From: a virus | Lineage: Duplodnaviria; Caudoviricetes | Strand: one strand, 5' to 3' | Virus record (IMG/VR): IMGVR_UViG_3300029288_000131 | Coordinates: 25,175 to 89,174 of that record | Length of the DNA stretch: 64,000 bases | In this document: positions 3,334 to 41,203 of the stretch, one piece after another | Layout: every line of letters starts with the position of its first letter | How positions within the stretch are numbered: the first letter of the stretch is position 1 | Program-made: the position numbers and the translations under genes | Notes under the pieces: model-generated | What the model was told of the DNA's origin: nothing | Database searches by the model: none | Seen by the model: the letters and a program-made list of their open reading frames with translations, nothing else

Positions 3334-3347
3334 GAAGGAGATAAGAG

Positions 3348-3841: not shown

Positions 3842-3844
3842 GAA

Positions 3845-4000: not shown

Positions 4001-4010
4001 ACAGAACAAC

Positions 4011-4256: not shown

Positions 4257-4262
4257 CTTCTA

Positions 4263-4955
4263 ATGGGTGACAAGCAGAAACAGAATCGAGGCATCTCACT
4301 GAGGACCAGGAAGCGTAAGTGGAGGGTCTTAGAGTATGCTTTGCAAGGGCAGGTGGACCCTGTAAGGATAGGGTCAGCGATGGGTGTGCCAGTGCCCTTG
4401 ATAGCATGTGACCTACGGTGGGTTAGCAAGATGTTGGCCCAGAGGGACAAGCAGGAGATAGCCGAGTTACAGGCATTGCACGGAGCTAGATTGCAGGAGT
4501 TGGGGTACAAGGCATTGGTGGCGTTTGAGCGGTCGAGACAGGATGAAGAAACGGTAACGACGAGCTTTCACAACGTGACGTGCAAGCGGTGCAAAGGAAA
4601 GGGAAGTTTGAACGGGGATGAGGGGGAATGGTGCCCGGACTGTGACGGGAATGGATACAAGACGGTTGAAAGGGTGAGGCGCAAGGTGAGGGGACAAGCG
4701 GGAGATCCACAGTTCCTGAAAACGGCCATTGATGCTTTTGACAAGTGGGCCAAGTTATACCAGCTCTACCCGCAATCACTCAAGGTTGTGCAAAAGGACC
4801 AAAGGCAAGTTCACATCCACAATGAATTGAACTTGGATGGGGTTCCTGAGGACGCGATAATAGAAGCGAGGAGGGCCGTTCTACGGTTGAAAGAACTGAC
4901 GGTTTCCCCGAAGGTGATAGACGTAGAGCCCGATAATAGGACAGGAGGTGAGTGA
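4263..4955 (+). CDS. putative terminase small subunit with DnaJ-type zinc finger
   Basis: Helical N-terminus, CKRCKGKG...CPDCDGNG, C-terminal VHIHNELNL...VIDVEP tail typical of TerS; nearest plausible TerS upstream of TerL (inference). Confidence 0.55.
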   Translation: MGDKQKQNRGISLRTRKRKWRVLEYALQGQVDPVRIGSAMGVPVPLIACDLRWVSKMLAQRDKQEIAELQALHGARLQELGYKALVAFERSRQDEETVTTSFHNVTCKRCKGKGSLNGDEGEWCPDCDGNGYKTVERVRRKVRGQAGDPQFLKTAIDAFDKWAKLYQLYPQSLKVVQKDQRQVHIHNELNLDGVPEDAIIEARRAVLRLKELTVSPKVIDVEPDNRTGGE

Positions 4956-5179
4956 TGTTCAGCGTGAGACAGAAGCGTGAAATCGCGGATGCTGTTCAGA
5001 AGATTCTTAGGGATACGAATCATCCTGAGTTGCCCGACGGAGAGATTCAGTTTCGTCTCCACGTCAGGGGAGATGCGTCGTGGTCGTGGGCCGACATCCG
5101 AAACAATGGAGCAGTGATTGACCCGGCGGTCAATCCCTGGAATGAATCGCAAGATGTAGCGAGCACAACGGGAGGGTGA
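4955..5179 (+). CDS. hypothetical protein
   Basis: GGAGGTGA RBS, TGATG coupling. Confidence 0.6.
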   Translation: MFSVRQKREIADAVQKILRDTNHPELPDGEIQFRLHVRGDASWSWADIRNNGAVIDPAVNPWNESQDVASTTGG

Positions 5180-5183
5180 AGCC

Positions 5184-5465
5184 ATGTATCGAGTCATTGG
5201 GTTTGAGCGGACGCCGGAGTCGCTTGGCTGGTCCGAGTTGCCTGTGGCTCTGGTGCGTGACATCGACCATGCGATGCTACGAGGCGACCAGTGGTTGATA
5301 TCGCGAGCCGACGCCGCGGTGCTCGTCGTGGACCTCGACGCGACGCGACACATCCACGCCATGCGATCGGTCGGGTGGACGCCGCTGGGATTGGCCGACC
5401 GGATGGAGCTCGTGGCCAGGCGGGAGCAAATACACGCAGCCGCGAACGCGGCGGGAGGTGAGTGA
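5184..5465 (+). CDS. hypothetical protein
   Basis: 93 aa, GGAGGGTGA RBS. Confidence 0.55.
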   Translation: MYRVIGFERTPESLGWSELPVALVRDIDHAMLRGDQWLISRADAAVLVVDLDATRHIHAMRSVGWTPLGLADRMELVARREQIHAAANAAGGE

Positions 5466-5734
5466 TGGTGACATACGTGTCCGGGATGATTCATGCCATG
5501 TGTATTGCCGCGGTCCACGCATGGCTCGGAGGGCAGGTCATTGAGAACGCTAAGGCGTTCTGCGACTCTGCGACGTTCTATGTTCGCCCGAACGACACTC
5601 GCTGCTGGCCCATTGCCCTAGATGGCAAGATGGTCCGTGTGCGGCTGGAGCTTGTGGACAACGACGCAATCCCGATGGTGAATGAAGCACCCCGGGGCCG
5701 CAGGAGCGGCAGGAGCGGCAGAAAGCGATGGTGA
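5465..5734 (+). CDS. hypothetical protein
   Basis: GGAGGTGAGTGATG junction. Confidence 0.5.
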   Translation: MVTYVSGMIHAMCIAAVHAWLGGQVIENAKAFCDSATFYVRPNDTRCWPIALDGKMVRVRLELVDNDAIPMVNEAPRGRRSGRSGRKRW

Positions 5735-5737
5735 GTG

Positions 5738-6757
5738 ATGAAGTCCCTGGAGCGGTTACTTAAGCGTCTCGCCGCTGGCGGCTGTAGGCCGTGCATTAGC
5801 TATCGCGGAGAAACGCCAGACGGTTGCCCGATGTGGCGGGCGCACGTCAACGCCTGCGGGAACTTCTGGGAAGACGAAACTACGCCGTACCGAGCACTCT
5901 GCCGAGCCGAGGCAGCGTGGCTAGCCGCTGGCAAGCCACTGGAGGGAATGGCCGCGACGGCGGAACCCGCGCCGGAGCCGAAACCCGAGCCGAAACCCGA
6001 CGCCCCGACGGCCGTGGAAATCGACATGCGGACAAAACTACTTCACTACGAACGGTACTGCCGAGATCGTGCCCGGCAGTTGTTGGCCGTCGCCAAACCG
6101 GACGCGACACCGGACCCACAGACCCTCAATAGCTTCGGCCTGTTGATGGACGCGATTCAGCGTGCGATTGAGGATCGGCAAGCGCCCACTGATGCCGAGC
6201 CGAAACCCGAGCCAACCATCGCCCAACTGTTCGCCATCGTCCGGCGGTGGTGCGACGCGGCGCCGGATGAGATACGAAAAATAGCGATACTCCGGAATGG
6301 AGCGCGACTTATCGGCCCGCATCCCGACTGGCATGAGGTGACGGACTCGCCCGAACTTCTGATGGAGTGGCTTGCAGCGGAGGCGACACCCGCGCCGAAG
6401 CCCGAACTGACGCCAGCGGACATCATCGCGGCGGCACGGGAGAGAGTCTCCTACCTGAGACGTATCGCCGCGATTAGCGAGCAAGATGCCAACTCCATGC
6501 TCGCCGGCCTCGCGCTGGCAGACCCGGCGATGCTGGCCGAACGCGAACAGCCCGAGGGAAAGGGGGGAGTGATGAATCAGAAGCCGCTGGAAGATTGCTG
6601 CGTCTGCGACGAGGCGACCGGCCGCGCCGGGAGGGGCGACGATTCCATCTACTGCAACTGCGGAGCGGGACCATTCTGTGTGGACTGCTGGCGTGGCCAT
6701 GCGTGCGAGTGGAAAGACGACGACAGCGAACAGCCCGAGGAGCCGAGCAATGGGTGA
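5738..6757 (+). CDS. mosaic hypothetical protein of fused short modules; Cys-rich C-terminus
   Basis: Modules separated by PEPKPEP linkers; internal in-frame REQPEGKGGVM junction; CCVC...CNC...CVDC C-terminus. Confidence 0.55.
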   Translation: MKSLERLLKRLAAGGCRPCISYRGETPDGCPMWRAHVNACGNFWEDETTPYRALCRAEAAWLAAGKPLEGMAATAEPAPEPKPEPKPDAPTAVEIDMRTKLLHYERYCRDRARQLLAVAKPDATPDPQTLNSFGLLMDAIQRAIEDRQAPTDAEPKPEPTIAQLFAIVRRWCDAAPDEIRKIAILRNGARLIGPHPDWHEVTDSPELLMEWLAAEATPAPKPELTPADIIAAARERVSYLRRIAAISEQDANSMLAGLALADPAMLAEREQPEGKGGVMNQKPLEDCCVCDEATGRAGRGDDSIYCNCGAGPFCVDCWRGHACEWKDDDSEQPEEPSNG

Positions 6758-8680: not shown

Positions 8681-10234
8681 TTGACATTCATTCGAGGGCT
8701 GGTGATACCGTCAGCTTCCGGTCCTCGTCTGTTCGATGATTGCATGGTCTCGTTTCAGCGGGAGTGTTTTGAGGCTCTAGCTGGATCTTTGGAAGCCGTG
8801 CGAGATGGTAGGATGCCGCCTTGCAGACGGTTCTGGATAGAACGCACCAAGAAGGCGAGTAAGGACCTTGATCTTGGGGCTTCTCTGCTATGGCTGATGT
8901 CCTTTCCGACTCGGCCTATGGTCATTCAAGTGTCGGCTGCTAATCAAGAACAAGCGGCCATTCTCAAGACCAGAATCGATGCTATCCTCTACTACAACGA
9001 ATGGCTGAAGGATTTCGTATACTCGGTGCAAAACAGAGTGACCAGCAAGCGATCAGGATTGGAAGCGGAGCTGGTCAAATTGGTGGTTGAGCCGACGGGA
9101 AGTGCAGGGGCGAAGCAGGGAGCAACACCGGATGTGCTTGTGTTGAATGAGTTAGTTCACGTGGACAAGTGGGATGTGATGGATGCCCACATGAACAACG
9201 CGGACGGCGTACCGCAGGGTGTCGTCATCATTTCAACTAATGCCGGTGTCAAGGGAACGAAGGCAGAGGTGTGGCGAAACGTCGCTCTGCAAAACAAGAG
9301 CAGATGGAAGACTTTCATCTTCAAGGGAACGGCACCGTGGATCAGCGAGGAGGATAAGCAAGATGCAAAGAAGCGAGATCCATTGGGCAAGGAGTACGGG
9401 AGGCTTTGGTTGGGAGATTGGGCCAGCGGGAAGGGAGGTGCCGTAGACGAGGCCTCTTTGAACGAGTGCTTCCGGTTGGATGGACCTCTCATGGAACCTG
9501 AACCTGGATGGTTCTACGTCGCCGGTCTCGACTTGGGAATCAGTCACGACCATTCGGGAGTTGCCATAGTCGGTGCGAACAGAAGTGAACAACGAGTACG
9601 AGTGGCATATGTCAAAGGATGGGCTCCCAGCATACCGAACGACAGGGGAGTGTTCGAAGTAGATTGTGAAGCGGTGGAAGAAGCATGTTTCAGGCTGGGA
9701 AAGCAATTCAAGATTTGTTGGTTTGGATACGACCCAGCAGCGGGCGGAAGTTTCATGGCACAGAATCTCCGTCGCAGAGGACTGCCAATGAAGGAGATGA
9801 CGTTTGCATCTCCTGCAAACTTGTCAAAGATGGCACGGTCTTTCGTTACGATGGTGAAGGCAGGCAAATTGGAATGCTACGAGGATGCAGAGGGACGACT
9901 CAGGAGAGACTTCGGCAAGTTTGACATTCAGTATACGGTGGCGAGAGGTTACAGATTAGTTGCCGTTAGTGACGAATATGGACACGCTGACGTTGGGACT
10001 GCTTTGGTCATTTGTTTGCCGATGTGCGTTGAGTTGCTCAAAGGAGGCATAGGCATGATGTCTCCAGGAGATCAATTGGTCTATGATAACGAACCTTTGT
10101 CAAAAGAGGAAGTGGAGGAGATGCCGGATTACCTCCGTGAGCTCTACGAAATGGAGGAGGGGGAAGTCGAAGAGCAGGAGAGGCTTCGCAAGTGGGTTGA
10201 AAGGACGAAGAGAAGAGAAGAGTCCTCTTTCTAA
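8681..10234 (+). CDS. terL: terminase large subunit
   Basis: ATPase half (WIERTKKASKD, VLVLNE, IIISTNAG) plus RNase H-like nuclease (AGLDLGISHD, GYDP, GHADVGTA); true start probably upstream of TTG 8681. Confidence 0.85.
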   Translation: MTFIRGLVIPSASGPRLFDDCMVSFQRECFEALAGSLEAVRDGRMPPCRRFWIERTKKASKDLDLGASLLWLMSFPTRPMVIQVSAANQEQAAILKTRIDAILYYNEWLKDFVYSVQNRVTSKRSGLEAELVKLVVEPTGSAGAKQGATPDVLVLNELVHVDKWDVMDAHMNNADGVPQGVVIISTNAGVKGTKAEVWRNVALQNKSRWKTFIFKGTAPWISEEDKQDAKKRDPLGKEYGRLWLGDWASGKGGAVDEASLNECFRLDGPLMEPEPGWFYVAGLDLGISHDHSGVAIVGANRSEQRVRVAYVKGWAPSIPNDRGVFEVDCEAVEEACFRLGKQFKICWFGYDPAAGGSFMAQNLRRRGLPMKEMTFASPANLSKMARSFVTMVKAGKLECYEDAEGRLRRDFGKFDIQYTVARGYRLVAVSDEYGHADVGTALVICLPMCVELLKGGIGMMSPGDQLVYDNEPLSKEEVEEMPDYLRELYEMEEGEVEEQERLRKWVERTKRREESSF

Positions 10235-20201: not shown

Positions 20202-20515
20202 CCATTTACGTTGATGTTGATGGAACGCTTACGACCAGTGCTCGATCTGGCGGGGTGTTCAAGAGTGCTTCACTCAGGGAAGATGTAATAGAGAAGGTCA
20301 AGGAGTGGATCGCTGCTGGACATGATGTGGTGCTTTGGTCCGACGACCGAAGGTATGCTGATAAAGTTGCTCGACGTTTGGGACTGGCTGTCGGAGCCGC
20401 TGTGAAGAAGCCCGACTTGATCGTGGACGACAAGACGTTTCGCATCAAGCAACTGACCCGCAGATGCTTGGTGACGCCGGACCAGTTCCTTGAGATGGAA
20501 GTTGAGCAGAAATGA
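20198..20515 (+). CDS. HAD-superfamily phosphatase
   Basis: IYVDVDGTL (DxDGT), VVLWS, KPDLIVDD. Confidence 0.8.
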   Translation: MTIYVDVDGTLTTSARSGGVFKSASLREDVIEKVKEWIAAGHDVVLWSDDRRYADKVARRLGLAVGAAVKKPDLIVDDKTFRIKQLTRRCLVTPDQFLEMEVEQK

Positions 20516-21369
20516 TTGATCCTCTGCAGGTCGAACGCCGAGGTAAACCCATCGATCTAGAAGGGCTGTGGAATCCAAACCCAGCCTTTCTGGTCGGTGG
20601 GGGACCGTCTCTGAACGACTTGCCATTGGAGCGTCTAAAGGATCGGGGAGTGGTTTCGTTGGCAATTAATCAGTCGGCAGCATGGGTTCCGGTCAAGGCA
20701 TGGGTGTTTAGTGACACGCAGTGGAAGTTTCATTCGTCGTTGTTCATGGACCCTGCCGTTATGACGTTTGCTCCGATCCCGAAACTGAGAAGGCAGTTCC
20801 ATCTCAAGACGGAGGAGGGTTTTCACGATACGGGGATTCGACTGAACCAATGCCCGAACACCTACGGCTATTCGAGACTGACTTGCTTTGTGCCGGACGA
20901 GTTCTTTACGACGACACACGCTCACTGGGGACCAAGAAAACACCAGCCCGCTGACAAGCCGGAGCAGGGATGTCTATGCACAATGCTGTTGGGCATACGG
21001 TTGCTACACTACCTTGGAGTCCGTCGGATCTATTTGTTGGGAGTTGATAATAAGGGAAGGGATGGGAAGTGCTACGCATTCCCGGAGGGCAAGGGTGCTA
21101 GGACGAGACGCTACAAGTGGGAACGGCACATGCTCGAACGGCTTCAACCTCAGTTTGACAAGAGGGGGATGGAGCTGTATAACTGCAGCCCTGACAGCGA
21201 TTGTCGTTTGTATCCGTTTCGTTCTTTTGATGAAGCGTTGAAGGATTGTAAAGGTTCGGTGGAGGACGACCCGCTAGACACGACTGGCTGGTACGACATG
21301 AGTTCCCAGCAGGAGCAGTGTCGGAAGAACCCCAAGATCGTTCCCGTCCATTATGGAGGTGCGAGATGA
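20512..21369 (+). CDS. DUF115/Maf-like putative glycosyltransferase, paralog 1
   Basis: AFLVGGGPSL, LAINQ, YLGVRRIYLLGVD, LYNCS; paralogous to 44341-45285. Confidence 0.6.
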   Translation: MIDPLQVERRGKPIDLEGLWNPNPAFLVGGGPSLNDLPLERLKDRGVVSLAINQSAAWVPVKAWVFSDTQWKFHSSLFMDPAVMTFAPIPKLRRQFHLKTEEGFHDTGIRLNQCPNTYGYSRLTCFVPDEFFTTTHAHWGPRKHQPADKPEQGCLCTMLLGIRLLHYLGVRRIYLLGVDNKGRDGKCYAFPEGKGARTRRYKWERHMLERLQPQFDKRGMELYNCSPDSDCRLYPFRSFDEALKDCKGSVEDDPLDTTGWYDMSSQQEQCRKNPKIVPVHYGGAR

Positions 21370-21539
21370 TCGACAGAGACGAAGCAAAGGACATCGAACA
21401 GTGGGCCGAGGAGGAAGCAGAGGGACTGGCGACACTGTGGCACTGCATTTGGTATCATTGCTTGGAGAGGGGTTTCGCAAAGGAAGAGGCGATGGAACTG
21501 CTAAAGACCTACATCATGGCGACAGAGGAGTTGGGGTGA
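21366..21539 (+). CDS. hypothetical protein (57 aa)
   Basis: GGAGGTG RBS, ATG 21366. Confidence 0.55.
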   Translation: MIDRDEAKDIEQWAEEEAEGLATLWHCIWYHCLERGFAKEEAMELLKTYIMATEELG

Positions 21540-22312
21540 GATTCAGGACCAGCTACCAGATAGCTGTTACGTATCAATGCAAGCTGAAGTGCGAGCATTG
21601 CTTCGAGCTGTTTGATGTGCTGCCGTCGTTGGACAGGGACTCGGAAGTGTCACTAACTGATGTTGTGTTTGCTGGACGGTTGCTGAAGAAGTTCCAGATT
21701 GATGTTGCCAAACTCAGGCTGACCGGGGGTGAGCCTATGTTGCATCCCAAGTTGTCTCAGATACAGGAGGTGGTGAAGGGAGAGTGGAAACCCGAGACGA
21801 TGGTGGTGTGCACGAGCGGTGTCGGTTTCTCTCAAGAGGAGTTGAGTCAAGCGGGATCGGTAAGGGAGTATGGGATGGAGCTGAAAAGAGAAACCCATCA
21901 TAATTATCGCATATCGCCGTTCGACCTGGGCATTGCTCCGAAGTTGGGGTTTGTTGATCGATGTAGGACGCAGCACTACTGCGGATGCTACTTCGATGCT
22001 TATGGGTTTACAGCATGTCCACAAGCAGCACCGTTCGGCCGGCTTTTTGGGATGGATTACCATGAATGGGCTCCGGTGCTGAGAGGCAGGGAAGAGTTTT
22101 GTCGTCATTGTACGGCTTCGTTGGGAAGGAATGGTGCTGCTCGATTGATGCAGTTGGCGAGGGATGGAAAGATCGAGTATCCCACCAAGACATTTAAGGA
22201 AGCCATAGCACGACGGAAAGATGAGGGATACTTGGAGATTCCCAAGTTTAGGGACAGGCTGCCCAAGCAAATGCAACAGCAGTATGACAAGACGAAGAGG
22301 AGGATTGGATAG
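21536..22312 (+). CDS. radical SAM protein with C-terminal auxiliary Cys cluster
   Basis: YQCKLKCEHC (CxxxCxxC), LTGGEPMLHP, C-terminal C..YCGC...CP...CRHC. Confidence 0.85.
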   Translation: MRFRTSYQIAVTYQCKLKCEHCFELFDVLPSLDRDSEVSLTDVVFAGRLLKKFQIDVAKLRLTGGEPMLHPKLSQIQEVVKGEWKPETMVVCTSGVGFSQEELSQAGSVREYGMELKRETHHNYRISPFDLGIAPKLGFVDRCRTQHYCGCYFDAYGFTACPQAAPFGRLFGMDYHEWAPVLRGREEFCRHCTASLGRNGAARLMQLARDGKIEYPTKTFKEAIARRKDEGYLEIPKFRDRLPKQMQQQYDKTKRRIG

Positions 22313-23763: not shown

Positions 23764-25389
23764 ATGAACGCTCTCACAAAGGCGTTCGACAGTCAGCGGT
23801 CCCTGATAGCTACCGTTCGAGATGATGCCGTGCGTCTGAAAGCGTCCGGCGTCTTGAGCGGACAAGTAGGATCGTCCATGCTTGGTGAGATGGGCAGCAT
23901 GATGCAGAACCAAGCCAAGTATCAATCCAAGTACGCTTTGTTTCGAGGGTGGATTTACTCGGCCGTTCATGCCATAGCAGATGCTGCGGCTGGGCAGCCG
24001 GTCAGCTTGGCTCGATTGAAGAAGGTCCCGAAGAACGGGGATGTTCCGAAGCGGTCGAAGGCTTATCAGTTGAACAAGATGCCCAACTCGATAAGGGCCA
24101 AGGCCATCCAGCATGAGATGGACATGCTGGAAGATCATCCTTTGGTTGCAACATTGGAATCGCCCAACCCGTTTCAGGATCGTTGTCACTTCACCTACAC
24201 GTTTGTTGCCAATCTGGCATTGACGGGGTGGGCTTACGTGGTGAGGGACAAGACTAAGGATGGTAAGCATCAGTTCATCTGCCTGCCCACCACTTGGATC
24301 ACCCCGAAACACGAGAAGGGACCGTTTTCAAAGTTCGTGGTTAGGAACCCCCAGAACCCGAACGTCAAGGGAGAAGAGTTAGATAGGTCTCAGGTGGCGT
24401 TTGCTCACCTGCCCAACCCGTCCGATCCGTTGAGTGCCATGTCCCCTGCTGGTGCTCAAATCACCAGCATTAGAATTGACGACCACATCCAGACTTGCCA
24501 GGAGCAGTTCTTTTATAACGGAGTGTTCCCGTCTGTGATTATCACGATGGGAAAGAATCCTGATCCTGACATGCCCGGTGGGGGCAACCGTCCCATGCTG
24601 ACCCCCGCCCAGAGAAGGCAGGTCAACGCTGTCATTCGCAAGACGTGGGCGGGTGTTCATAACTACGGCAACCCTGCAATCATTGATGCCTCGATCGAGA
24701 GAATCGAACGGTTGGGAGCTACCCAGAACGAGATCGGATGGGAGAAGTCCGAGATGACCGTGCGGACTCGCATCCTGTCCAGTTATGGAGTACATCCCTT
24801 CATCCTCGGCGAGACGATGCCTGGAAGCTATGCCCAGGCTAGCATTGTTGAGGGTCGGTTCTATCGCAGAGTGAACGGCTACTTGGAGATGTTGTCGAAC
24901 CTGATGACGAACTTCATCAGGCAGATTGAGGATGAGGATAGTGAAGATTTGCTTGCTTGGTGGGAGAAGTTGGAGTCACGGGATCAGGGACTCTACTATC
25001 AAAACATGCGAGAGGCTCGGAAGACGGGTGACATCACGAAGAACGAGTACCGTGCTATCCTTGGGTTCCCTCCGGCAGAGGATGAGGAAGAAGAGGAGGC
25101 AGCTCCCATCGGGCAGAGCTTGTTCGGTGGGATCATTCAATTGATTGCTCAGATAGGGCAAGGCAACATTGACCCCACTCAAGGCGAAGCACTGCTGGTA
25201 GGACTCGGTGTGCCGAAGAAGGTGGCCGAAAAGGTGTCGGGCATCGGCATCAAGCGGGAGCAGCAAGTCCAGCAAGAGCAGGAAGTGGTCGAGGATGCTG
25301 TTGAGGAGCTGAAGAGAGCTTTGGTTGAGTTGAAGGTGTCACCGTCCGAATTGGCTAATCGGATCGAACGGGAGTGCTTGGTAGGATGA
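23764..25389 (+). CDS. portal protein (HK97-like)
   Basis: WIYSAVHAIADAAA, HPLVATLESPNP, LALTGWAY, FYNGVFPS, ILSSYGVHPFILG. Confidence 0.9.
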   Translation: MNALTKAFDSQRSLIATVRDDAVRLKASGVLSGQVGSSMLGEMGSMMQNQAKYQSKYALFRGWIYSAVHAIADAAAGQPVSLARLKKVPKNGDVPKRSKAYQLNKMPNSIRAKAIQHEMDMLEDHPLVATLESPNPFQDRCHFTYTFVANLALTGWAYVVRDKTKDGKHQFICLPTTWITPKHEKGPFSKFVVRNPQNPNVKGEELDRSQVAFAHLPNPSDPLSAMSPAGAQITSIRIDDHIQTCQEQFFYNGVFPSVIITMGKNPDPDMPGGGNRPMLTPAQRRQVNAVIRKTWAGVHNYGNPAIIDASIERIERLGATQNEIGWEKSEMTVRTRILSSYGVHPFILGETMPGSYAQASIVEGRFYRRVNGYLEMLSNLMTNFIRQIEDEDSEDLLAWWEKLESRDQGLYYQNMREARKTGDITKNEYRAILGFPPAEDEEEEEAAPIGQSLFGGIIQLIAQIGQGNIDPTQGEALLVGLGVPKKVAEKVSGIGIKREQQVQQEQEVVEDAVEELKRALVELKVSPSELANRIERECLVG

Positions 25390-26753
25390 ACCGCCTAGAA
25401 CTAGCTAAGCAGGTGGTCAACTCAGCGACGCTAGCTGTTCGTCTCAAGCAGCGTCAGATGGCTCCCACTCTGCGACGTGCCACTCAACGCCTCTTGCACT
25501 TGAAGGAGTTCAAGCGAACCGAGGAGGAGTTGGCGGAAGTCATTGCTCCTGTGATTCGGGAGGAGGTGAAGTCGATAGTCAGCGGGTTGTTTGAGATGGA
25601 CGGGAAGTCCATCACCTCCACCAAGTCCTACGAAGACAACGCTCACACCCTCGTCTCCCAGGTGTTCAACGCCCGTGAATGGCACGACCGTCTGATAGAT
25701 AAGATGCTGCCCGTGATGGCCGTGAAGATGTTGGAAGCTGCCACGGCCGAGATGCTGAGCATGGGTGTCGATCCTCGCAGAAGCAAAGGACGACTGAAGC
25801 TGGACGAGAAGTGGAACCCTGCCCAACCTCGTGACGAGTTCGGCAGGTGGGCAGGTGGTAGTGGGGGTTTGATGGGACCAGACATAGGAGGTGGTAGTGG
25901 TGGACGTAGTGGCAGTGGCATGGTGAGAGCCAGATACAGGGGAAAGAAGAGGGGATGGACTTTGAAGAACGGCGATCCCCTGCCAGACCACGCTCCGAAG
26001 TATATCTCACCAGGATGGCGTGATGTTCAGGTGGCTTTAGACCCAAATGCAGATACATTAGTGGTGGCTAAGGACTCAAAGGGAAGAGGACAGAGAATAT
26101 ACTCTCAGAATCACAAGATGCGAGCAGCCGCCGAGAAGTTTGCAAGAACCAATGAGCTTCGTCAAAAGATAATGAAGATAGAGCAGGAAATTGAGAAGGA
26201 TACAAAGAGCAAAGACCCTGCCATTCGAGAAGCTTCTGCTTGCCTACGACTCATCAACGAGACGGGCATCCGTCCTGGCAGTAGTAGAGACACACGAGCT
26301 GAGAAGCAGGCGTATGGTGCTACTACGTTAGAAGGACGGCATGTAAAGGTGTTGAAGGATGGGGTGCATTTAAGGTTCGTTGGAAAGAAGGGTGTCGATT
26401 TGGACATCCCTGTAACGAACGGGAAGATCGCATCCGACCTGATACGCCGTGCTAAGAGTGCTGGTAGGAGAGGCAAGTTGTTTGATACCACTCAGAACAG
26501 GGTTCTTGCTTACTCGAAGTCGAAGGACGGGGGTGGTTTCAAGACAAAGGACTTTCGCACGGCCAGGGGAACGACCGTAGCAATCAAGACAATGAGGGGA
26601 ATGCGTAAACCGAAGACAGAACAAGAATACAAGGAAGCTGTCAAGCAGGTGGCGACGGCAGTGTCGAAGAAATTGGGAAACACGCCGACAGTGGCATTAC
26701 AAAGCTACATTGATCCGACCGTGTTTGGCAAGTGGAGAGTGGAGGGAGAATGA
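25386..26753 (+). CDS. MuF/gpF N-terminal segment fused to DNA topoisomerase IB
   Basis: Helical N-terminus; WNPAQPRDEFGRW motif (25803-25850); TopIB catalytic set GIRPG(R), GKKG(K), KDFRT(R), LGNT(N for H), SYIDP(Y); DSKGRGQRIY. Confidence 0.88.
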   Translation: MNRLELAKQVVNSATLAVRLKQRQMAPTLRRATQRLLHLKEFKRTEEELAEVIAPVIREEVKSIVSGLFEMDGKSITSTKSYEDNAHTLVSQVFNAREWHDRLIDKMLPVMAVKMLEAATAEMLSMGVDPRRSKGRLKLDEKWNPAQPRDEFGRWAGGSGGLMGPDIGGGSGGRSGSGMVRARYRGKKRGWTLKNGDPLPDHAPKYISPGWRDVQVALDPNADTLVVAKDSKGRGQRIYSQNHKMRAAAEKFARTNELRQKIMKIEQEIEKDTKSKDPAIREASACLRLINETGIRPGSSRDTRAEKQAYGATTLEGRHVKVLKDGVHLRFVGKKGVDLDIPVTNGKIASDLIRRAKSAGRRGKLFDTTQNRVLAYSKSKDGGGFKTKDFRTARGTTVAIKTMRGMRKPKTEQEYKEAVKQVATAVSKKLGNTPTVALQSYIDPTVFGKWRVEGE

Positions 26754-26938
26754 TGCCTGAAATCTACGACGACGACCAAGACGTCTATTTCGGAGAGGTA
26801 GACAATCCTTTGCCGGATTGGAGAAAGAGCAAGTCCCTGATCGACGAGGAAGATCCCGACGACGAGTTGCTGGACGAGACACCCGAAGACGTAGTGGCGC
26901 TGCTAGGGTTCGATCCACTTGAGGAATGGAACGACTGA
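26750..26938 (+). CDS. small acidic protein
   Basis: EEDPDDELLDETPEDVVALLGFDP; coupled on both sides. Confidence 0.65.
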   Translation: MMPEIYDDDQDVYFGEVDNPLPDWRKSKSLIDEEDPDDELLDETPEDVVALLGFDPLEEWND

Positions 26939-27636
26939 TGCCTTCGACAGCAACGCAGTGGTTGACCGAAAATCCTGGAGATCTAGCAGCACTGGACGAG
27001 TTGCTTCAGACTGCTGGAGTGCCTATTCAACTGCTGATGGAGTACCCGCAGTGGATGAAAGAAGCTATTGCTGAGCAACTGGTCGATACGTTTTCTCAAG
27101 ACTACTGGTACAACATAAGCGAGACGACGGGAGGGGATGCCGAGCGCATACTCCGTGAGGGATTGGAAGAAGGGTGGTCGATACGAAGAATGGCCACGGA
27201 GCTGCAGCAATCGTTGGGTGGAGATGCTTATGCCAGAACGAGGGCTAGAAACATAGCTAGAACTGAATCGGGACATGCATTGAACGGTGCCCGTCGTGCC
27301 GGGATGGATTCGTTGGTCGATGAGATAGGACAGCAAGTCCCCATGAAACCGACTTGGATGAGTGTCTTGGGAACGACGACAAGGGATAGCCACGCGAACT
27401 TGGATGGGGTTCCTGCCGACTCAGACGGGATGTGGGAGTTGGCAGGTGTTCGGGTGCCGTGGCCCGGTCACATGGATTTACCTCCGTCTGAGCGTTGCAA
27501 TTGTCAGTGCTCAATCACGATGGAATTCGGGATGAAGGAGAACGAAGCTCAATCTCTGATTGATGAGTATTGGCAACGGGTTCAGTCGATGGAAGCAAGT
27601 TTCAAGGGAGACGAGAAAGAAGGACAATTACAATGA
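26938..27636 (+). CDS. MuF (Mu gpF-like) minor head protein, C-terminal domain
   Basis: RARNIARTES, KPTWMS...TTRDSHANLDG, PWPG...ERCNCQC. Confidence 0.88.
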   Translation: MPSTATQWLTENPGDLAALDELLQTAGVPIQLLMEYPQWMKEAIAEQLVDTFSQDYWYNISETTGGDAERILREGLEEGWSIRRMATELQQSLGGDAYARTRARNIARTESGHALNGARRAGMDSLVDEIGQQVPMKPTWMSVLGTTTRDSHANLDGVPADSDGMWELAGVRVPWPGHMDLPPSERCNCQCSITMEFGMKENEAQSLIDEYWQRVQSMEASFKGDEKEGQLQ

Positions 27637-29367: not shown

Positions 29368-30063
29368 ATGGCAAAGAATGTTACCTTCTATTTGGGACCG
29401 GCAAGTGGACTCCTTGCCACCCGTGTCTTGACGATCACTCGGATGAGGAGAGCAGGAGATGATTCAGCAATCACTCCTGCTTACAATGCCGATGCCGGTG
29501 CTGCTACAACCGTTGTGACGGTTCAGCTTGCCGACAATCAGATTTGGCAAGCACAGTTGGTTGATACGAATGCCACCGGAGAGGCAAGTGCCCCGGACGT
29601 TCTCAATTTCCATACGGGCAGCTTGCAGTTTCCGGGACCGAGGAGCCATGATAGGTTGCAGATCTTGTCGATGGAGGATCTGTCGTCCAGCTCATCCAGC
29701 TCGTCCAGCAGCATGTCGAGTTCGTCCTGGTCGAGCCAAAGCAGCGGATCGTCCGCCTCTTCCAGTTCTTCGAGTTCCAGCTTGGAGTACAGCTCGTCCA
29801 GTTCGTCCAGTTGCACAAGTGAGTCCAGTTCGTCCTGGTCGAGTCAGTCCAGTTCGTCCTGGTCGAGCCCGTCGAGTGCCAGTAGCCAGAGCACAAGCAG
29901 CAGCAGTTCCATTAGCACGTCCAGTTCAAGTCAGTCGAGTCATAGCTCGTCTAGCTGGTCAAGCAAAAGCAGCTCGTCTAGCTCCAGCAGCTCCAACAGC
30001 TCGTCTAGCTCCAGCAGCCAAAGCACGAGCCTTTCCAGTTCGTCCTGGTCTAGCCAGCCTTGA
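29368..30063 (+). CDS. poly-Ser protein 2
   Basis: Beta-rich N-domain, then about 125-aa Ser tract with periodic Trp. Confidence 0.75.
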   Translation: MAKNVTFYLGPASGLLATRVLTITRMRRAGDDSAITPAYNADAGAATTVVTVQLADNQIWQAQLVDTNATGEASAPDVLNFHTGSLQFPGPRSHDRLQILSMEDLSSSSSSSSSSMSSSSWSSQSSGSSASSSSSSSSLEYSSSSSSSCTSESSSSWSSQSSSSWSSPSSASSQSTSSSSSISTSSSSQSSHSSSSWSSKSSSSSSSSSNSSSSSSSQSTSLSSSSWSSQP

Positions 30064-30497: not shown

Positions 30498-30787
30498 TGT
30501 TCGTTGGATACGAGCAAATAGCTGCTGGTCCTGCCGTTCAGACAGCGGACGATTTGACGATTCCAGGCAACGCCACCGGCGTTCTCATCCAAGTGGATAC
30601 GAACAACATTCGTTACACGATGGACGGTGCCACCGATCCGACAGCGGCTGGAATTGGTATGTTGTTTGTTGTGAACGAAGCTCCTCAGTTCTTTACGATT
30701 GACGACCTGTTGCGGATTCGATTCATCCAAGTTGCCGCTGGCGTAGGCAACATGAATCTGCATTATACAGCAGGAAGAAACATATGA
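30494..30787 (+). CDS. small beta-rich protein, possible head decoration
   Basis: 97 aa; GGAGG RBS; position in the head cluster. Confidence 0.55.
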   Translation: MMFVGYEQIAAGPAVQTADDLTIPGNATGVLIQVDTNNIRYTMDGATDPTAAGIGMLFVVNEAPQFFTIDDLLRIRFIQVAAGVGNMNLHYTAGRNI

Positions 30788-32742
30788 ACCAGCGTCAACT
30801 GCTCGAAGCAATACGAGCCCGGACCCAGAAGAAGTCACAGTTTGGTCACGGCATCCTGACTGCCGACCTCTATCTCAAAGGCATGTTGGAGGGGCTGGGA
30901 TCGGACCTCTGTTATCAATTCGCCAGCCGGGGGCTGACCAGTTTCGACGACCTGATGAGAAAGGCTGCTCGGACGCTGGTCTACAGCAACCCCGAAATGA
31001 AGGTCGAAGAGAAGCTGACGGATGCTTACAGCAGCTTGCCTCGCGGGACGAAGCTGCCCAAGAACACGCTAATGGTGTTCAAGCATACGTTGACCAGCAG
31101 TGCCAAGGATCGAGACGGTGACACGCTTCACAGCGATGGGGCATCGGTCGATCCCAACATGCTGATGATTTGGCAGCACGTCCACACGATGCCCATCGGC
31201 AAGTTCATCGCCATTGCCGAGCAGAACACCAAGCACCTGAAGACGTACAGTGCCATCGTCGACATCAACGACTTGAGCCACGACTCGGCTGTGATGGTCG
31301 ACAACGGAATGGGACGCTTCAGCCACGGGTTCCGAGCATTGGAGTTCGTTGAGACGAAGGGTGGACGGGAAGGTGGAGTGGGATTCGACATTCACAAGTT
31401 CGAGATCATGGAAGAGTCACTAGTTTCCGTTCCTGCCAACCCCGACGCTCAGACGGATGAAGTGATTGTTTCGTTGGTCGAACGTGGCAAGTTGACCAGT
31501 CCTCTGATGAAAGAATTCAGCAAGTCCATAAGGGAGCGGATGCCGTTGTCTGTTCCTGTCAAGCTGGATCTCAAAGTGACCGTCAATGGTCAGGAGGTGA
31601 AGGATGAGAACAAGTCAAGAAACGGAGAAGGAGCGGGAGAAAAGGGAAAAGGAACGACCAGCACACCAGCGAAAGCAAATGGAGATAACGAGGACGAAGA
31701 GGAAGGTGCCGACAAGAAAGTAGAATGCCCCGAGTGCGGTGAGATGGTCAAGCCGGATGAAGATGGAGAATGTCCAGAGTGTGGAGCTAGCATGAAGGAA
31801 GAGAAGAAGGGAAAGAAGAACATTAGCCCGTCTTCGATCCATGCAGGCATGCTTAGTGATTCTTGGGAGTCCATCGAATCCCAACTTCGAGATTCGGTCA
31901 AGCATTATCTGATTTCAATGGGGCACGTGATTGGAGATACTGATTGGGTTTGGTTGATGGGAACGTACAATGACTTTGCAATTGTTTGTTGTGAAAAAGG
32001 AGGCAATCGCGAATTTTATAAGATAGCGTGGCAATTGAAGGACGGCAAGCCTCAATTTGTAGGAGAGCCAAATCTCGTCGAGGTAAAGATCTCGACGGAG
32101 TTGATAGAAAGAGCCAAGCGGTTTCGTCCTGAGCATGGCAAGCCCTATCCGAACGAGCACGCTGCTCGGATGAACGACCCCGACAAGTATGGAAAGATTC
32201 GACGACAGAACGATAAGTTTGGGGAAGGTATCCACGCCATCTTTGGGGTGCTAGAGGATGGCAAGACAGAGGTGCAGGCCATTCGGTTCGATTCGTCCAA
32301 GTTCTCAGAAGAAGAGGCACGTGAATGGCTCGAAGAGCATAAGTACAAGCCAGCCAAGTTTGAGCCAGCTAAGGAGGAGAAGAAGAGCGTCAAGCAGGGA
32401 CGGGTTATCAGTCACTCGAACGAAGCCAAGATCAAAGACGCCAAGGAAGATGTGGACGAAGCTAGCAAGATGGACATTGCTCGTCCTGCCAAGGCGTTGC
32501 TCAAGTCAGCATCTCGTAGCCTCACCGAGGTGATCGACACGATTGGCAACGAGGGACCAGTCGGAGAAAAGGCAATGACTGTGGAGGATGCGATGGCCAA
32601 GGTGCTTGCGGAGGCCAATACCAAGCAACGCAAGAACATGGCCGACGCCCTGCGGGCAATTGATATGGTGGAGAAGGAAACAATTCGATGCCAAGCCAAG
32701 CGTCGATTGATTTTGCGAATGAACACATCACGGCGGTCGTGA
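30784..32742 (+). CDS. prohead protease (HK97/S78-like) with long C-terminal extension
   Basis: KDRDGD, IWQHVHTMPIG (His), FSHGF (Ser), EESLVSVPANP; extension with CPECG x2 and PYPNEHAAR domain. Confidence 0.85.
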   Translation: MNQRQLLEAIRARTQKKSQFGHGILTADLYLKGMLEGLGSDLCYQFASRGLTSFDDLMRKAARTLVYSNPEMKVEEKLTDAYSSLPRGTKLPKNTLMVFKHTLTSSAKDRDGDTLHSDGASVDPNMLMIWQHVHTMPIGKFIAIAEQNTKHLKTYSAIVDINDLSHDSAVMVDNGMGRFSHGFRALEFVETKGGREGGVGFDIHKFEIMEESLVSVPANPDAQTDEVIVSLVERGKLTSPLMKEFSKSIRERMPLSVPVKLDLKVTVNGQEVKDENKSRNGEGAGEKGKGTTSTPAKANGDNEDEEEGADKKVECPECGEMVKPDEDGECPECGASMKEEKKGKKNISPSSIHAGMLSDSWESIESQLRDSVKHYLISMGHVIGDTDWVWLMGTYNDFAIVCCEKGGNREFYKIAWQLKDGKPQFVGEPNLVEVKISTELIERAKRFRPEHGKPYPNEHAARMNDPDKYGKIRRQNDKFGEGIHAIFGVLEDGKTEVQAIRFDSSKFSEEEAREWLEEHKYKPAKFEPAKEEKKSVKQGRVISHSNEAKIKDAKEDVDEASKMDIARPAKALLKSASRSLTEVIDTIGNEGPVGEKAMTVEDAMAKVLAEANTKQRKNMADALRAIDMVEKETIRCQAKRRLILRMNTSRRS

Positions 32743-32782: not shown

Positions 32783-34402
32783 ATGAAGATGACGGAAGCC
32801 TTTAAGAAGTGGCTTGTCGAGAACTGCGGCGTCAAGTCCGACGCGGCAGAAGACGAGCTGCGAGCGGCCGCCGGTAAGGCGTTTGCTGACGGCAAACTGA
32901 CGGCCGAGAAGTACATGGAGCTGACCAAGGATGAAGACGACGATCTGACCAAGGAGTTCAAGCGGATGAACGACAACTTGGAGAAGGCCGTTGCAGCTCT
33001 GTCCACTCCTCCCGAAAAGAAGGAGGAGAAGAAAGAGGAGAAGAAGGAAGAGCCCACCGGCGAGAAGAAGATTGGGGACCTTCCCGACAGGAAGCAGCCG
33101 GCCCCGCCGACCGTGCTGGAAAAGATGGTCGCTCGGCTCGGTGGCACTCCTATCGAACCAGAGGGTAAGACCATCGACGTCCGGGTCAAGGAAGCGGCCG
33201 AGATGTATACCGACACCAAGTCCGTTGCGGTCTTTCCGGCCAAGACGGCGAAGGGTCGGGCACATCCACGTGCTGGTCAGCCCATCATGGATTACGATGA
33301 GGGTGGCCGTGTGATCAACACGCCGAGTCAACGGGACAAGGCTGTGATCGGTGCCTTCTCCAAGTTCCTTTGTGCCAAGGCTCAGCGTGGTGGAAGTCGA
33401 ACATTCGGTTTCCAGGCGATGAACCAGCACGACAAGGAACTGCTACTCTATGCAATGGAGAACATGGAGTGGGTCGGAGCGTCCGACGGCGGCAATTACG
33501 CCGACATCAACGGCCGTAAGTTGACCACGATGGAAAAGCAAGCTCTGATCGACGACGCCGTGTCGGGCGGTTTGGAAGCGGCTCCCATCGTGTTTGACGA
33601 CGACGTGATTCAGGCACCGCTGCTCAACGGAGAGCTGTACCCGCACGTCAAGGTCGTTCCCCTGGATCGTGGACGTCGGGTTGAGGGTGTTGCCACTGGC
33701 ACCGTCACCGCCGCGTGGGGCGGTGTTGACGACACGGCAGTTGCCCTGTTCAACACAGCAGCCTACGTCACGGCATTCGATACGACCATCTTTCGTTGGG
33801 AAGGCTCCATTCGTATCGGGTTGGACTTCCTGTCCGACACGCCCATCGACTTCGGTGCTCACGTCACCGCCCAGTATGGCGAACGCCTGCTGGAAGACCT
33901 GGACGACGTGATTGCCACGGGCAACGGCACGACGCAGCCGACGGGCATCATGAATGCTGCGGGCACGACAGCCGTTGCTTTTGGTGGTGCCACCAGCCTT
34001 GGAGCTTACGAGCAGCTTCGCTTCGGCGTTGCAAAGCAGGAGCACAAGGGTGGGGTCGGTGCCAGTGCCGTGTTCTGTGGAACCGAGACCTCGTACATGA
34101 GGGCTCGGGCGTTGAACGTCGGTGCCACCGATGCTCGTCGCATCATGGGGTACGACTACTCCAGCTACAACTGGATGGAACGTCCCTACAAGATCAACAA
34201 CAGCCTGACCAACCGCCAGATCTTCTACGCGATCATGGCTCGCTATCGCATGTATCGTCGGCGTGGGTTGACCATGCGAACGAGCACCGAGGGCGACACC
34301 CTGATCCGCCGGAACGAGATGCTGATGGTTGCGATGGCCCGTTATGGTGGCCAGCTCGAGCGCGGAGCTTGTGCTGCCGTCACCACGACCGCCCCTGCGT
34401 AA
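32783..34402 (+). CDS. major capsid protein (HK97 fold) with N-terminal scaffold segment
   Basis: Coiled-coil N-terminus, SGGLEAAPIVFD, ATGNGTTQPTGI; follows the protease. Confidence 0.85.
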   Translation: MKMTEAFKKWLVENCGVKSDAAEDELRAAAGKAFADGKLTAEKYMELTKDEDDDLTKEFKRMNDNLEKAVAALSTPPEKKEEKKEEKKEEPTGEKKIGDLPDRKQPAPPTVLEKMVARLGGTPIEPEGKTIDVRVKEAAEMYTDTKSVAVFPAKTAKGRAHPRAGQPIMDYDEGGRVINTPSQRDKAVIGAFSKFLCAKAQRGGSRTFGFQAMNQHDKELLLYAMENMEWVGASDGGNYADINGRKLTTMEKQALIDDAVSGGLEAAPIVFDDDVIQAPLLNGELYPHVKVVPLDRGRRVEGVATGTVTAAWGGVDDTAVALFNTAAYVTAFDTTIFRWEGSIRIGLDFLSDTPIDFGAHVTAQYGERLLEDLDDVIATGNGTTQPTGIMNAAGTTAVAFGGATSLGAYEQLRFGVAKQEHKGGVGASAVFCGTETSYMRARALNVGATDARRIMGYDYSSYNWMERPYKINNSLTNRQIFYAIMARYRMYRRRGLTMRTSTEGDTLIRRNEMLMVAMARYGGQLERGACAAVTTTAPA

Positions 34403-38974: not shown

Positions 38975-41203
38975 ATGCCTGCAGGATTGGAATTGGCAAA
39001 AGCATACGTTCGCGTCAGGGCTGACTCTGGTCAATTGGGGGGCGATCTAAATAACGTTCGTCAAGAAGTGACTGGACAGCTCCAAGCTATGACGGCTGAC
39101 ATCATGCGGTCTGTCATGGGAATGCTTGCTGCCTATTCTGGTGCTGCTTTTCAGCAGATGGGATTGAGACAGGCGGCAGCCTTTGAGCAAACACAAATTG
39201 CTTTCACTACGATGCTTGGGTCTGCCAAAGAGACAGAAGATGTGCTTGCTAGGTTGACGGAGTTTGCTGCTTTGACTCCATTTGAGATGCCCGGGATTTT
39301 GCAAGCAGCACGTGGATTGATTCAGTTTGGTGAACGTGGTGATGACATGATGGTGACTTTGAAGGCATTGGGAAATGCAGCGTCGGGCACCTCTTCAGAC
39401 TTTGGCATGATTGCTCTCATCTACAACCAGATTCGTGGTGTTGGAAAGCTACTCACTCAAGACTTCCGGCAGTTGTCTACTCGTGGTATTTTGAGCTTGC
39501 AGGACCTTGCCGACTACTTCAAGGTGACGACGGAGGAAGCTCAGACCATGCTTAGTAAGGGTATGGTCAGTTTCGAGGATGTAAGAAAGATCTTCATCTC
39601 CCTTGGAGAAGAGGGAGGACGTTTTGCAAACATGATGGAGAAGCAGGCCAAGTCTTACACAGGTTTGCTAAGCACCCTTTCGGATGCTATTGGCATCACG
39701 GCAAGAACGGCTGTGACTCCATTCATGGAGAAGTTGAAGGTATTGTTAGGTGTGAAAATACAGTTGCTCGAACGTATTCGGGCACTGGTACAAGCGATGC
39801 CGAATCTTGCTTCCAACGTACTGATGGTAAATGCTTCTTTGGTGACGATTACGGCCACCCTCTATTCGTTGATGGTAGCTGCTAGACTGTTGGGTATCAC
39901 CATTAAGAAGACTTTGATCGCTACTGGAATTGGTGCAGTTATTGTACTGCTTGGAACAATGGCAGCAGTGGTCATTACGATACTTGAGAAGGTTTACAGT
40001 TGGGCGTTGAAGCAGAAGGAAGTACAAGAGGCATTGACACGAGCAGCGAAAAGGTTTCAGGAGGCATGGGGCAATATCAGAGAGTCAGCAGCGAAGCTAT
40101 ACGAGACATTCAGGATGCTTCTCTATTGGGCGTTGAAGCCATTCGGCGTGGAGCTCGCTATGATACCGAAGGCATTTGCCGGTCTGGTGGCCCTGGCAAT
40201 TGATAAGGTGTCGGAATTGGTACAGTGGCTCAGTCGAGCTGTTCGTGTCATTGCTCAGACTCCTATTCTCTTTGCCACTAGGATATTGATGATCATTGAG
40301 TCTGCTTGGGCTACGATAAAAGAAGTGATTACCAATGCTATTCTTCTACCGTGGAAGCTGTTGAAGGCTACTTTCTTCGGTATTATGGGAGCGATAGGAG
40401 TTGCCATCAAGAAGTTGGGGACGTTGCTTGTTGCTACTTTTGCTTCGGCTTGGGAGGGCGTGAAGACGTTCTTCACGAACATCTTGAAAGCCTTGGAAAT
40501 AATGGCATCGACCTTGCCTAAGATATTTGGCAACATGGGCAGAGCAATGGCAAGTGAGCTTATCCAAAACATGCCGGAGAAGCTGAGGGGATGGCTTGGA
40601 TTGGAAACACCTGGAGCAGTAGGTCCAAGCATCAGTCAAATTATGGGAGATGCAAAGAGACAACTGGGTGCTTTGGACTGGGACATCGGCTCAATTATGA
40701 GTAAGAAGTTTGAGGAGAAGGGTGGCAAAGCTGCCATGCAGAATTGGGGCAAGGAGTTGTGGGAGGCATTTAAGAAACCGTTTGCTGATACGGATTGGAG
40801 CTTGCTGGGTCCAGCAGCATCAAGACTGAAGTATTGGCTTACAGAGACTGTGCAAGATTTTCGTCGACGGATGGCTGGGATCGCTTTGGGACAGGAGATC
40901 GGGGAGAGGCTTGGACAGGGATCGAACTGGCTGATGAAGCAATTCATGCGAGCAAGGGACATGCTGAAGAAGAAGGTGGGAGAAGAAGAAGAGACTCCCA
41001 TAGCATTCTCGATAGGAGCTGGACGAACAGGCTTTGCCGATCTCGGCCGTAAGATTCAAGACGAGCTGTTGAAGACGGAGGACCCTGCCAAAGAAACGGC
41101 CAAGAACACGGCCAAGGTGCCTCCACTCTTGGAGAGTCTGTTGAAGGCTGTCAAGGAACCATTGAAGTCAGTTGTTGGTCTCGGTGCCCCAGGTGGAATA
41201 TGA
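38975..41203 (+). CDS. tape measure protein
   Basis: LAKAYVRVRAD; AAAFEQTQIAFTTMLGSA...AALTPFE tape-measure domain; amphipathic helical repeats. Confidence 0.92.
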   Translation: MPAGLELAKAYVRVRADSGQLGGDLNNVRQEVTGQLQAMTADIMRSVMGMLAAYSGAAFQQMGLRQAAAFEQTQIAFTTMLGSAKETEDVLARLTEFAALTPFEMPGILQAARGLIQFGERGDDMMVTLKALGNAASGTSSDFGMIALIYNQIRGVGKLLTQDFRQLSTRGILSLQDLADYFKVTTEEAQTMLSKGMVSFEDVRKIFISLGEEGGRFANMMEKQAKSYTGLLSTLSDAIGITARTAVTPFMEKLKVLLGVKIQLLERIRALVQAMPNLASNVLMVNASLVTITATLYSLMVAARLLGITIKKTLIATGIGAVIVLLGTMAAVVITILEKVYSWALKQKEVQEALTRAAKRFQEAWGNIRESAAKLYETFRMLLYWALKPFGVELAMIPKAFAGLVALAIDKVSELVQWLSRAVRVIAQTPILFATRILMIIESAWATIKEVITNAILLPWKLLKATFFGIMGAIGVAIKKLGTLLVATFASAWEGVKTFFTNILKALEIMASTLPKIFGNMGRAMASELIQNMPEKLRGWLGLETPGAVGPSISQIMGDAKRQLGALDWDIGSIMSKKFEEKGGKAAMQNWGKELWEAFKKPFADTDWSLLGPAASRLKYWLTETVQDFRRRMAGIALGQEIGERLGQGSNWLMKQFMRARDMLKKKVGEEEETPIAFSIGAGRTGFADLGRKIQDELLKTEDPAKETAKNTAKVPPLLESLLKAVKEPLKSVVGLGAPGGI

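Follow-up and report, generated by a model that had tools for sequence, protein, structure and literature searches.

A type IB topoisomerase and an acidic partner encoded between the two parts of a MuF head gene in an uncultured tailed phage

Genes directly behind the portal gene

The DNA analyzed here (the window) is a stretch of 64,000 nucleotides, the right-hand 64 kb of the 89,174-bp IMG/VR virus genome IMGVR_UViG_3300029288_000131, a single metagenomic contig from an uncultured tailed phage that is estimated to be 94% complete. Directly behind the portal gene of its head-assembly operon lie three genes, in which a type IB topoisomerase (TopIB) and a small acidic protein stand between the N-terminal region of a MuF protein and its core. 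The portal gene and the features of this gene block are as follows, numbered within the window:

23764..25389, + strand: portal gene, 541 amino acids (PF04860, E 1.8e-25; portal families phrog_2662 and phrog_12)
25386..26753, + strand: N-module/TopIB fusion gene, 455 amino acids from ATG 25386 (reading frame open from GTG 25374)
25386..25805, + strand: N module, comprising four long helices and presumed to serve as carrier or anchor (N-module hidden Markov model (HMM), residues 5-144)
25812..25850, + strand: junction motif WNPAQPRDEFGRW
25851..25919, + strand: Gly-rich flexible linker (predicted local distance difference test (pLDDT) score about 30 over residues 136-180)
25920..26750, + strand: TopIB, N-terminal beta domain and catalytic domain (PF01028, PDB 2f4q, Foldseek)
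26271, 26385, 26556, 26679 and 26706, + strand: codon starts of the catalytic residues R, K, R, N and Y
26750..26938, + strand: acidic partner, open reading frame (ORF) of 62 amino acids (alignments A1, A5 and A6; adjacency statistics; charge)
26938..27636, + strand: MuF core gene, 232 amino acids from ATG 26938 (ORF 26926/26938-27636; PF04233, phrog_2468)

The genes of this block overlap at their ends. The portal stop codon (TGA, 25387-89) overlaps the start codon of the fusion gene (ATG, 25386; ATGA), the stop codon of the fusion gene (TGA, 26751-53) overlaps the ATG of the 62-amino-acid ORF at 26750, with GGAGGGAG shortly 5' of that start, and the stop codon of the acidic ORF (TGA, 26936-38) overlaps the ATG of the MuF core gene at 26938 (TGATG). 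One junction, that between TopIB and the acidic ORF, carries a Shine-Dalgarno sequence. The three genes occupy three different frames between the portal and the next head genes. We looked for terminator-like sites on the + strand between these genes and saw none, and promoter-like matches in the gene block occurred at chance level only. As judged from these overlaps, the three genes right behind the portal gene (N-TopIB, acidic partner and MuF core) are translationally coupled.

Analysis of the fusion protein revealed a Topoisom_I (PF01028) match of 82.9 bits over residues 246-441, compared with a cut-off of 23.7, and a genome-wide scan gave 84.8 bits for the same family with no stops within the match. 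The TopIB of Deinococcus radiodurans (PDB 2f4q) matched residues 198-454 with an E-value of 5e-16, and alignment with this structure identified the catalytic pentad as R300, K338, R395, N436 and Y445, corresponding to R137, K174, R239, N280 and Y289 of 2f4q (window residues are numbered from GTG 25374; subtract 4 if counting from ATG 25386). The initial annotation of this DNA had proposed a TopIB with these catalytic codons and a separate MuF core gene beginning at 26938. All five codons were found at the positions it gave, and PF01028 and PF04233 both scored above their cut-offs, with 44.1 bits against 29.6 for the MuF core. The pentad was invariant in 73 non-redundant phage homologues, with one H at the N position, which argues for retained catalysis. 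The window TopIB is apparently active; the comparison indicates that it is complete and that its active site is under purifying selection.

The fold of the fusion protein was examined using an AlphaFold 2 (AF2) model. Four long helices (residues 2-129, pLDDT 50-70) are followed by a disordered segment (residues 136-180, pLDDT about 30) and a TopIB fold (residues 183-455, pLDDT about 80) comprising strands at 183-243 and a catalytic domain at 245-455. The N-terminal helices, the motif WNPAQPRDEFGRW and the Gly linker noted previously for the first piece are all present. The best Foldseek matches of the model were 3m4a, 2f4q, 3igc and 2h7g, which are bacterial and variola TopIB structures (E 4e-11 to 1e-9). 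Like the D. radiodurans enzyme (2f4q/3m4a), the window TopIB has a two-domain fold and an R-K-R-N-Y pentad, with Asn as the fourth residue as in bacterial enzymes. In contrast to that enzyme, with which it shares about 25-30% identity, it is tethered behind a phage head module by a 45-amino-acid disordered linker and is followed by a conserved acidic ORF without a PDB match. Counts of poxvirus-type CCCTT/YCCTT sites displayed a strong strand asymmetry, yet they equalled the order-3 Markov expectation and provided no signal.

Division of the MuF gene and its conservation

The MuF core matched PHROG head-morphogenesis families (e.g. phrog_2468, E 4e-25) and was 52-56% identical to the N-terminal halves of two MuF-TopIB proteins, P0016 and P0030. 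In the window the N-terminal helical region and the core do not share one polypeptide, as TopIB and the acidic ORF stand between them. The relative P0006 (661 amino acids, locus L003) is a single chain in which HMMs identified the N module at 7-146, the MuF core at 145-374 and TopIB at 405-665. The window N module aligned to residues 1-154 of P0006 (33% identity) and the window MuF core to residues 141-366 (46% identity), and the position of the break is just ahead of a conserved TAT-x-WL stretch.

To place the N module, a profile was used in an exhaustive search of a 1.8-billion-protein library. This search revealed 277 representative clusters, and nearly all matches placed the module at residue 1. 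PF04233 followed directly after it in 58 of the 83 members of at least 230 amino acids, which identifies the N module as the usual N-terminus of this MuF subfamily. Together with the single chain of P0006, these 58 proteins support the earlier proposal that the MuF gene is in two pieces with TopIB on the first. The remaining members of the 83 carry ART, zeta toxin, C39 peptidase, GNAT, intein or TopIB domains, and by these domain assignments the non-MuF partners of the module are the typical MuF cargo repertoire. A word-based search with N-module residues 1-165 gave nothing at E <= 1e-3; the exhaustive profile search did detect relatives. No match was obtained with hhalign between the N-module profile and the more distant MuF-TopIB proteins P0037 and P0034, and no PHROG family was found for the N module.

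Two further features of N-module proteins were observed. In P0001, P0126, P0135, P0143 and others, the first two and last two helices of the module are parted by an insert of 200-700 amino acids, so the module appears to be insertion-tolerant internally as well as at its end. An Intein_splicing domain (PF14890) was identified in 6 of the 83 N-module MuF proteins and in 2 of 54 TopIB carriers; they may represent true inteins or, alternatively, release modules of the self-cleaving Hint type.

A search for the same synteny revealed the order portal, N-TopIB, small acidic ORF and MuF core in the contigs L002, L007, L008, L009, L010, L015 and L017. These seven contigs derive from different samples and show 43-50% identity; L008 has an additional ART domain. 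An alternative explanation for the window is that its MuF gene was broken by an assembly chimera or by frameshift errors and that the pieces are non-functional. In favor of this, the pieces lie in three frames on a record that is a single metagenomic contig. However, the same order and breakpoint occur in at least seven independent contigs, every junction is a clean stop/start overlap, one of them with a Shine-Dalgarno sequence, and all three products are conserved as proteins. An artefact or decay is extremely unlikely on this evidence, and the recurrence of the split order in at least seven divergent contigs excludes a chimera or frameshift for practical purposes. The initial annotation had allowed for a chimera at 25800 or 26940, which the shared breakpoint contradicts. 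The comparison indicates that the split is a stable, inherited arrangement.

Permuted relatives were also identified. L005 and L016 encode a MuF core-TopIB protein with the N module as a separate upstream gene, and L014 encodes a portal-TopIB fusion with a free N module. The L014 locus (3180-6352 of IMGVR_UViG_3300013232_000002) comprises an 870-amino-acid portal and TopIB ORF, a free N module of 138 amino acids, an acidic ORF and a 797-amino-acid MuF protein. In tblastn it gave the highest segment identity to the window protein (62%), while its whole match ranks fourth by E-value.

The topoisomerase-acidic cassette and its carriers

The 62-amino-acid ORF contains 23 Asp/Glu and 3 Lys/Arg residues. 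Its isoelectric point is 4.05, compared with 10.25 for TopIB, and the net charges are about -20 for the acidic partner and about +28 for TopIB. Conservation of the acidic ORF is at 49-64% identity, with the motifs DWR, DPDDELL and TPxDVxAxLGFDP, and it comes after the TopIB-bearing gene whether MuF stands before or behind. No PHROG family was found for it, and comparison with PDB sequences gave marginal matches only (TerB C-terminus, E 0.055; G1-ATPase subunit beta, E 0.26). We also considered the acidic ORF as a split-off tail of TopIB; this was rejected, as the C-terminal tail of the D. radiodurans enzyme did not match it. An ESM Atlas model of the acidic ORF alone had a pLDDT of 0.30. In an AF2 model of the natural TopIB-acidic fusion L121, the conserved C-terminal half of the acidic module (model residues 321-340) reached a pLDDT of 76-85 and the linker stayed below 50, which weakly suggests that the acidic partner folds on the TopIB domain.

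The linkage of the two genes was quantified in 70 non-redundant IMG/VR loci retrieved with TopIB. The acidic module was distributed as follows:

38/70 loci: within 150 nucleotides of TopIB, as a small ORF
21/70 loci: within 150 nucleotides of TopIB, as the N-terminus of a larger protein
1/70 loci: within 150 nucleotides of TopIB, as an in-frame TopIB fusion
5/70 loci: 194-856 nucleotides from TopIB
5/70 loci: missing, 3 of them at contig ends

The acidic module therefore starts no more than 150 nucleotides from the end of TopIB in 60 of the 70 loci, and it is present in 65 of the 67 loci with room for it. When loci were instead retrieved with the acidic module, using the narrower alignment A6 because A5 was too divergent for a locus scan, TopIB was directly upstream in 33/33 loci. 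Two natural in-frame TopIB-acidic fusions were identified, L060 and, among these 33 loci, L121. Larger proteins that start with the acidic module contain ART, DUF2213, pentapeptide repeat, ferritin, NUDIX, Tpt1, GNAT or MuF domains. WNPAQPRDEFGRW occurs only once in the 89-kb genome. Variants of this junction motif (NPxH/QxxxGRF or HPRDxxGxF, then Gly) precede TopIB in most carrier proteins, and the same motif comes after the acidic module where that module is fused to more cargo. Taken together, TopIB and the acidic module travel as one cassette on portal, MuF and other head-locus carriers, and this cassette is common in uncultured phages.

Acidic modules were also identified on contigs of bacterial metagenome-assembled genomes (MAGs). 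On the deltaproteobacterial MAG contig L123 (4700-5219), the acidic ORF directly adjoins a CRISPR-like array and starts immediately behind its final repeat (which ends in ...GACCTGATTTAAGAAGGGATTGCGAC); this adjacency may reflect a host link for this group of phages or an assembly chimera bridged by a spacer. Good acidic modules with the LGFDP motif are present at L125:4965-5252 and L126:4959-5141, the latter behind an XRE-type helix-turn-helix gene and ahead of a DUF29-like gene.

A tightly linked pair of this kind could also be a MuF-type toxin with its immunity gene. TopIB would then be a delivered effector that kills or arrests cells by nicking their chromosome or relaxing it without control, and the acidic ORF would be the immunity protein of the producing cell. 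MuF polymorphic toxins are found in temperate phages, and 89% of their genes are followed by an ORF of fewer than 150 amino acids (Jamet et al. 2017, PMC5576092); the small ORF in the window lies exactly where these authors place candidate immunity genes. The tight gene coupling, the opposite charges, the movement of both genes as a cassette and the presence of toxin domains (e.g. ART and zeta toxin) on N-module proteins elsewhere are also in line with such a pair. In contrast, the acidic module forms the N-terminus of a larger protein with additional enzyme domains in about 21/70 loci (ART, NUDIX, pentapeptide, ferritin, GNAT or MuF) and is twice in-frame with TopIB, which is not expected of an immunity protein. 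The invariant pentad, including the religation residues, looks like that of a normal topoisomerase and not of a poison. No PF00589 tyrosine integrase was found in the 94%-complete genome, a search that did not cover other integrase types or the missing 6%, whereas MuF toxins are described in temperate phages. We consider a toxin-immunity pair unlikely. That the acidic module is often fused to additional enzymes speaks against a role in immunity alone; a docking or masking peptide fits better.

We also surveyed the carriers of TopIB, using 54 proteins with at least 120 amino acids ahead of the enzyme. This analysis revealed 24 portal proteins with TopIB on their C-termini (PF06381, 15; PF06074, 3; PF04860, 3; PF05136, 3) and 7 MuF proteins; other carriers include NUDIX, ART and pyrophosphatase domains. 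The window fusion protein consists of one carrier module and one enzyme. Multi-domain relatives comprise P0012, with the order N-ART-TopIB, and proteins of 800-1800 amino acids with NUDIX, ART or pyrophosphatase domains.

These carriers bear on whether the window enzyme is simply an intracellular, unpackaged phage topoisomerase that landed in the head operon, with the N module as the leftover of a disrupted MuF. Some phage TopIBs are indeed free-standing proteins of 300-340 amino acids (e.g. L028, L029 and L037), and in Bacteroides phage BS162P1 the TopIB gene has small hypothetical genes as its neighbours and is outside a recognisable head module. However, the N-TopIB fusion is kept at 43-52% identity across many contigs with a clearly conserved N module, its gene is translationally coupled to the portal and MuF core, and TopIB is fused to portal C-termini in four portal families, which is hard to explain unless head location matters. 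An unpackaged enzyme is quite unlikely on these grounds.

A TopIB gene was also observed in cultured Xanthomonas jumbo phages (PhiXhv-12, -15 and -16 and Ep026), the nearest cultured phages with such a gene close to a head-tail connector gene. Xanthomonas phage PhiXhv-12 (PV764601.1; L127:3104-5110) encodes a 668-amino-acid protein annotated as 'topoisomerase' with the TopIB domain in its middle, among hypothetical genes and a few kb from a head-tail connector gene. This phage is a possible cultured system in which to look for a virion TopIB.

Head operon context and proposed role of the topoisomerase

The wider head operon of the window includes the following genes:

8681-10234: large terminase; an adaptor-like gene also lies upstream of the portal gene
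30784-32742: protease/scaffold-like gene, 652 amino acids, downstream of the MuF core
32783-34402: major capsid gene
38975-41203: tape measure gene

In the product of 30784-32742, a zinc ribbon (CPECG...CPECG) is combined with a weak match to prohead proteases (Peptidase_S78, phrog_80) and, around YPNEHAARM, with a BRX-domain match over the Pfam cut-off (27.6 bits). An ORF at 29368-30063 encodes 231 amino acids of which more than half are serine, with long Ser tracts in mixed codons. Between the adaptor-like gene and the portal region (20512-22312) are a weak MptE-like/DUF115 ORF and a radical-SAM-like ORF, which are unusual for a head module. A check of the contig ends revealed no terminal repeats.

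Enzyme domains fused to MuF or portal proteins and delivered with the phage DNA are an established principle (Iyer et al. 2017, PMC5512222; Jamet et al. 2017, PMC5576092). As the best explanation of the locus as a whole, we consider it reasonably probable that a cassette was inserted into the MuF gene, that TopIB is packaged via the N module and that the acidic partner binds TopIB. A two-gene cassette, consisting of the junction motif, the Gly linker and a complete TopIB followed by the acidic ORF, would have entered a MuF gene of the SPP1 gp7 type at the boundary between N module and core, and the insertion would have given rise to N-TopIB, the acidic partner and the MuF core as three coupled genes behind the portal gene. 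Portal C-termini and MuF proteins are presumed to lie inside the head, so a carrier module of this kind would bring a tethered TopIB into the procapsid. The N module may achieve this beside the portal, either alone or in renewed association with the separately encoded MuF core. The idea of packaging and injection fits the TopIB fusions to portal C-termini (24/54, in four Pfam families) and to MuF (7/54), and packaging and delivery of TopIB are plausible on this basis.

Enzymes of the TopIB family require neither ATP nor Mg2+ or another metal, and the window enzyme could therefore relax DNA inside the head or directly after ejection. Poxvirus TopIB is a component of the virion core with a supporting role in early transcription, and serves as a working analogy. 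By comparison with it, the window TopIB may act on the phage genome or on host DNA, relaxing it either within the head or on ejection with the DNA, and we favor delivery with the DNA and an early role. The acidic partner probably binds TopIB and may mask its DNA-binding cleft until delivery; alternatively, it may dock extra cargo onto TopIB where it is fused to further enzymes.

A more novel alternative to delivery with an early role is that TopIB acts as an ATP-independent swivel within the capsid. The MuF N module, or in relatives the portal itself, would keep it at the portal vertex, where it would relieve the twist that packaging and ejection impose on an end-anchored genome, with the acidic peptide as a DNA-mimicking gate or as a cargo-loading peptide that docks on TopIB. 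We regard this swivel as possible but doubtful.

Several observations weigh against the favored explanation of a packaged TopIB with a dedicated acidic partner. The case for packaging consists of gene position and fusion partners, and the sequence does not decide whether TopIB works inside the capsid, on host DNA or on the DNA of the incoming phage. Outside its own subfamily, no characterised MuF N-terminus shows a detectable resemblance to the N module, so that its anchoring role is an assumption. With regard to the acidic partner, no TopIB lies within 5 kb of the module on either strand of the three bacterial MAG contigs L123, L125 and L126, which weakens the notion that it is strictly TopIB-bound; the TopIBs of the cultured phages BS162P1 (Bacteroides) and PhiXhv-12 (Xanthomonas) lack the module; and in L014 the N module lies between TopIB and the acidic ORF, the only locus with anything between them. 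The rise in pLDDT in L121 is a measure of local confidence only and compares the output of two different predictors.

The locus resembles SPP1 gp7-type MuF genes and MuF toxins (PMC5576092) in that a PF04233 core is encoded just after the portal gene together with a variable enzyme domain and a small ORF behind the enzyme. In contrast to MuF toxins, which combine an N-terminal MuF domain and a C-terminal toxin in one protein, the cargo in the window is on the N module only and PF04233 lies in the next-but-one gene. TopIB cargo is absent from the text of PMC5576092 (0 occurrences), and relatives of the window locus often have the small ORF joined to additional cargo (about 30% of loci). The polyvalent proteins described by Iyer, Burroughs, Anand, de Souza and Aravind (2017, PMC5512222) are likewise head-locus enzymes fused to MuF or portal proteins and predicted to be packaged and delivered, and the N-module relatives carry ART, zeta toxin and GNAT domains as in that survey. 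However, TopIB is not a domain in its text, where 'topoisomerase' occurs only in a reference title, and neither an acidic partner nor a gene-splitting insertion is described there. Phage T4 Alt and other packaged enzymes are loaded into the head, injected with the DNA and act at the start of infection (PMC5512222). The window enzyme differs from Alt in its chemistry, and its loading would use the MuF N module or the portal instead of a T4-type targeting sequence.

Poxvirus TopIB (vaccinia/variola, PDB 2h7f and 3igc) belongs to the same enzyme family. In contrast to this free protein of a eukaryotic virus core, the window enzyme is covalently joined to a tailed-phage head module and is a candidate virion protein. 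A literature search identified no paper on a phage head-associated TopIB or on a TopIB/acidic cassette, and topoisomerases are not among the MuF- or portal-fused cargoes described in the literature searched. New here are the gene-splitting insertion of the cassette into MuF and the quantified two-way linkage of TopIB and the acidic module.

If TopIB is packaged, tailed phages would resemble poxviruses in having a DNA-relaxing enzyme in the virion. Being independent of ATP and metal, TopIB is the one kind of topoisomerase that would be able to work in a capsid or at entry. The split gene implies that an N module of 140 amino acids alone may suffice as a carrier, a property with practical appeal for the loading of phage heads with foreign proteins. 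The acidic partner, for which no structure is known, is a candidate natural regulator or docking peptide of TopIB. The swivel reading, if true, would add a new virion function and a new loading principle and would make DNA rotation and torsion in packaging and ejection genetically testable. A packaged TopIB would bear on two long-standing questions, the handling of torsional stress during packaging and ejection and the enabling of first transcription from the injected genome.

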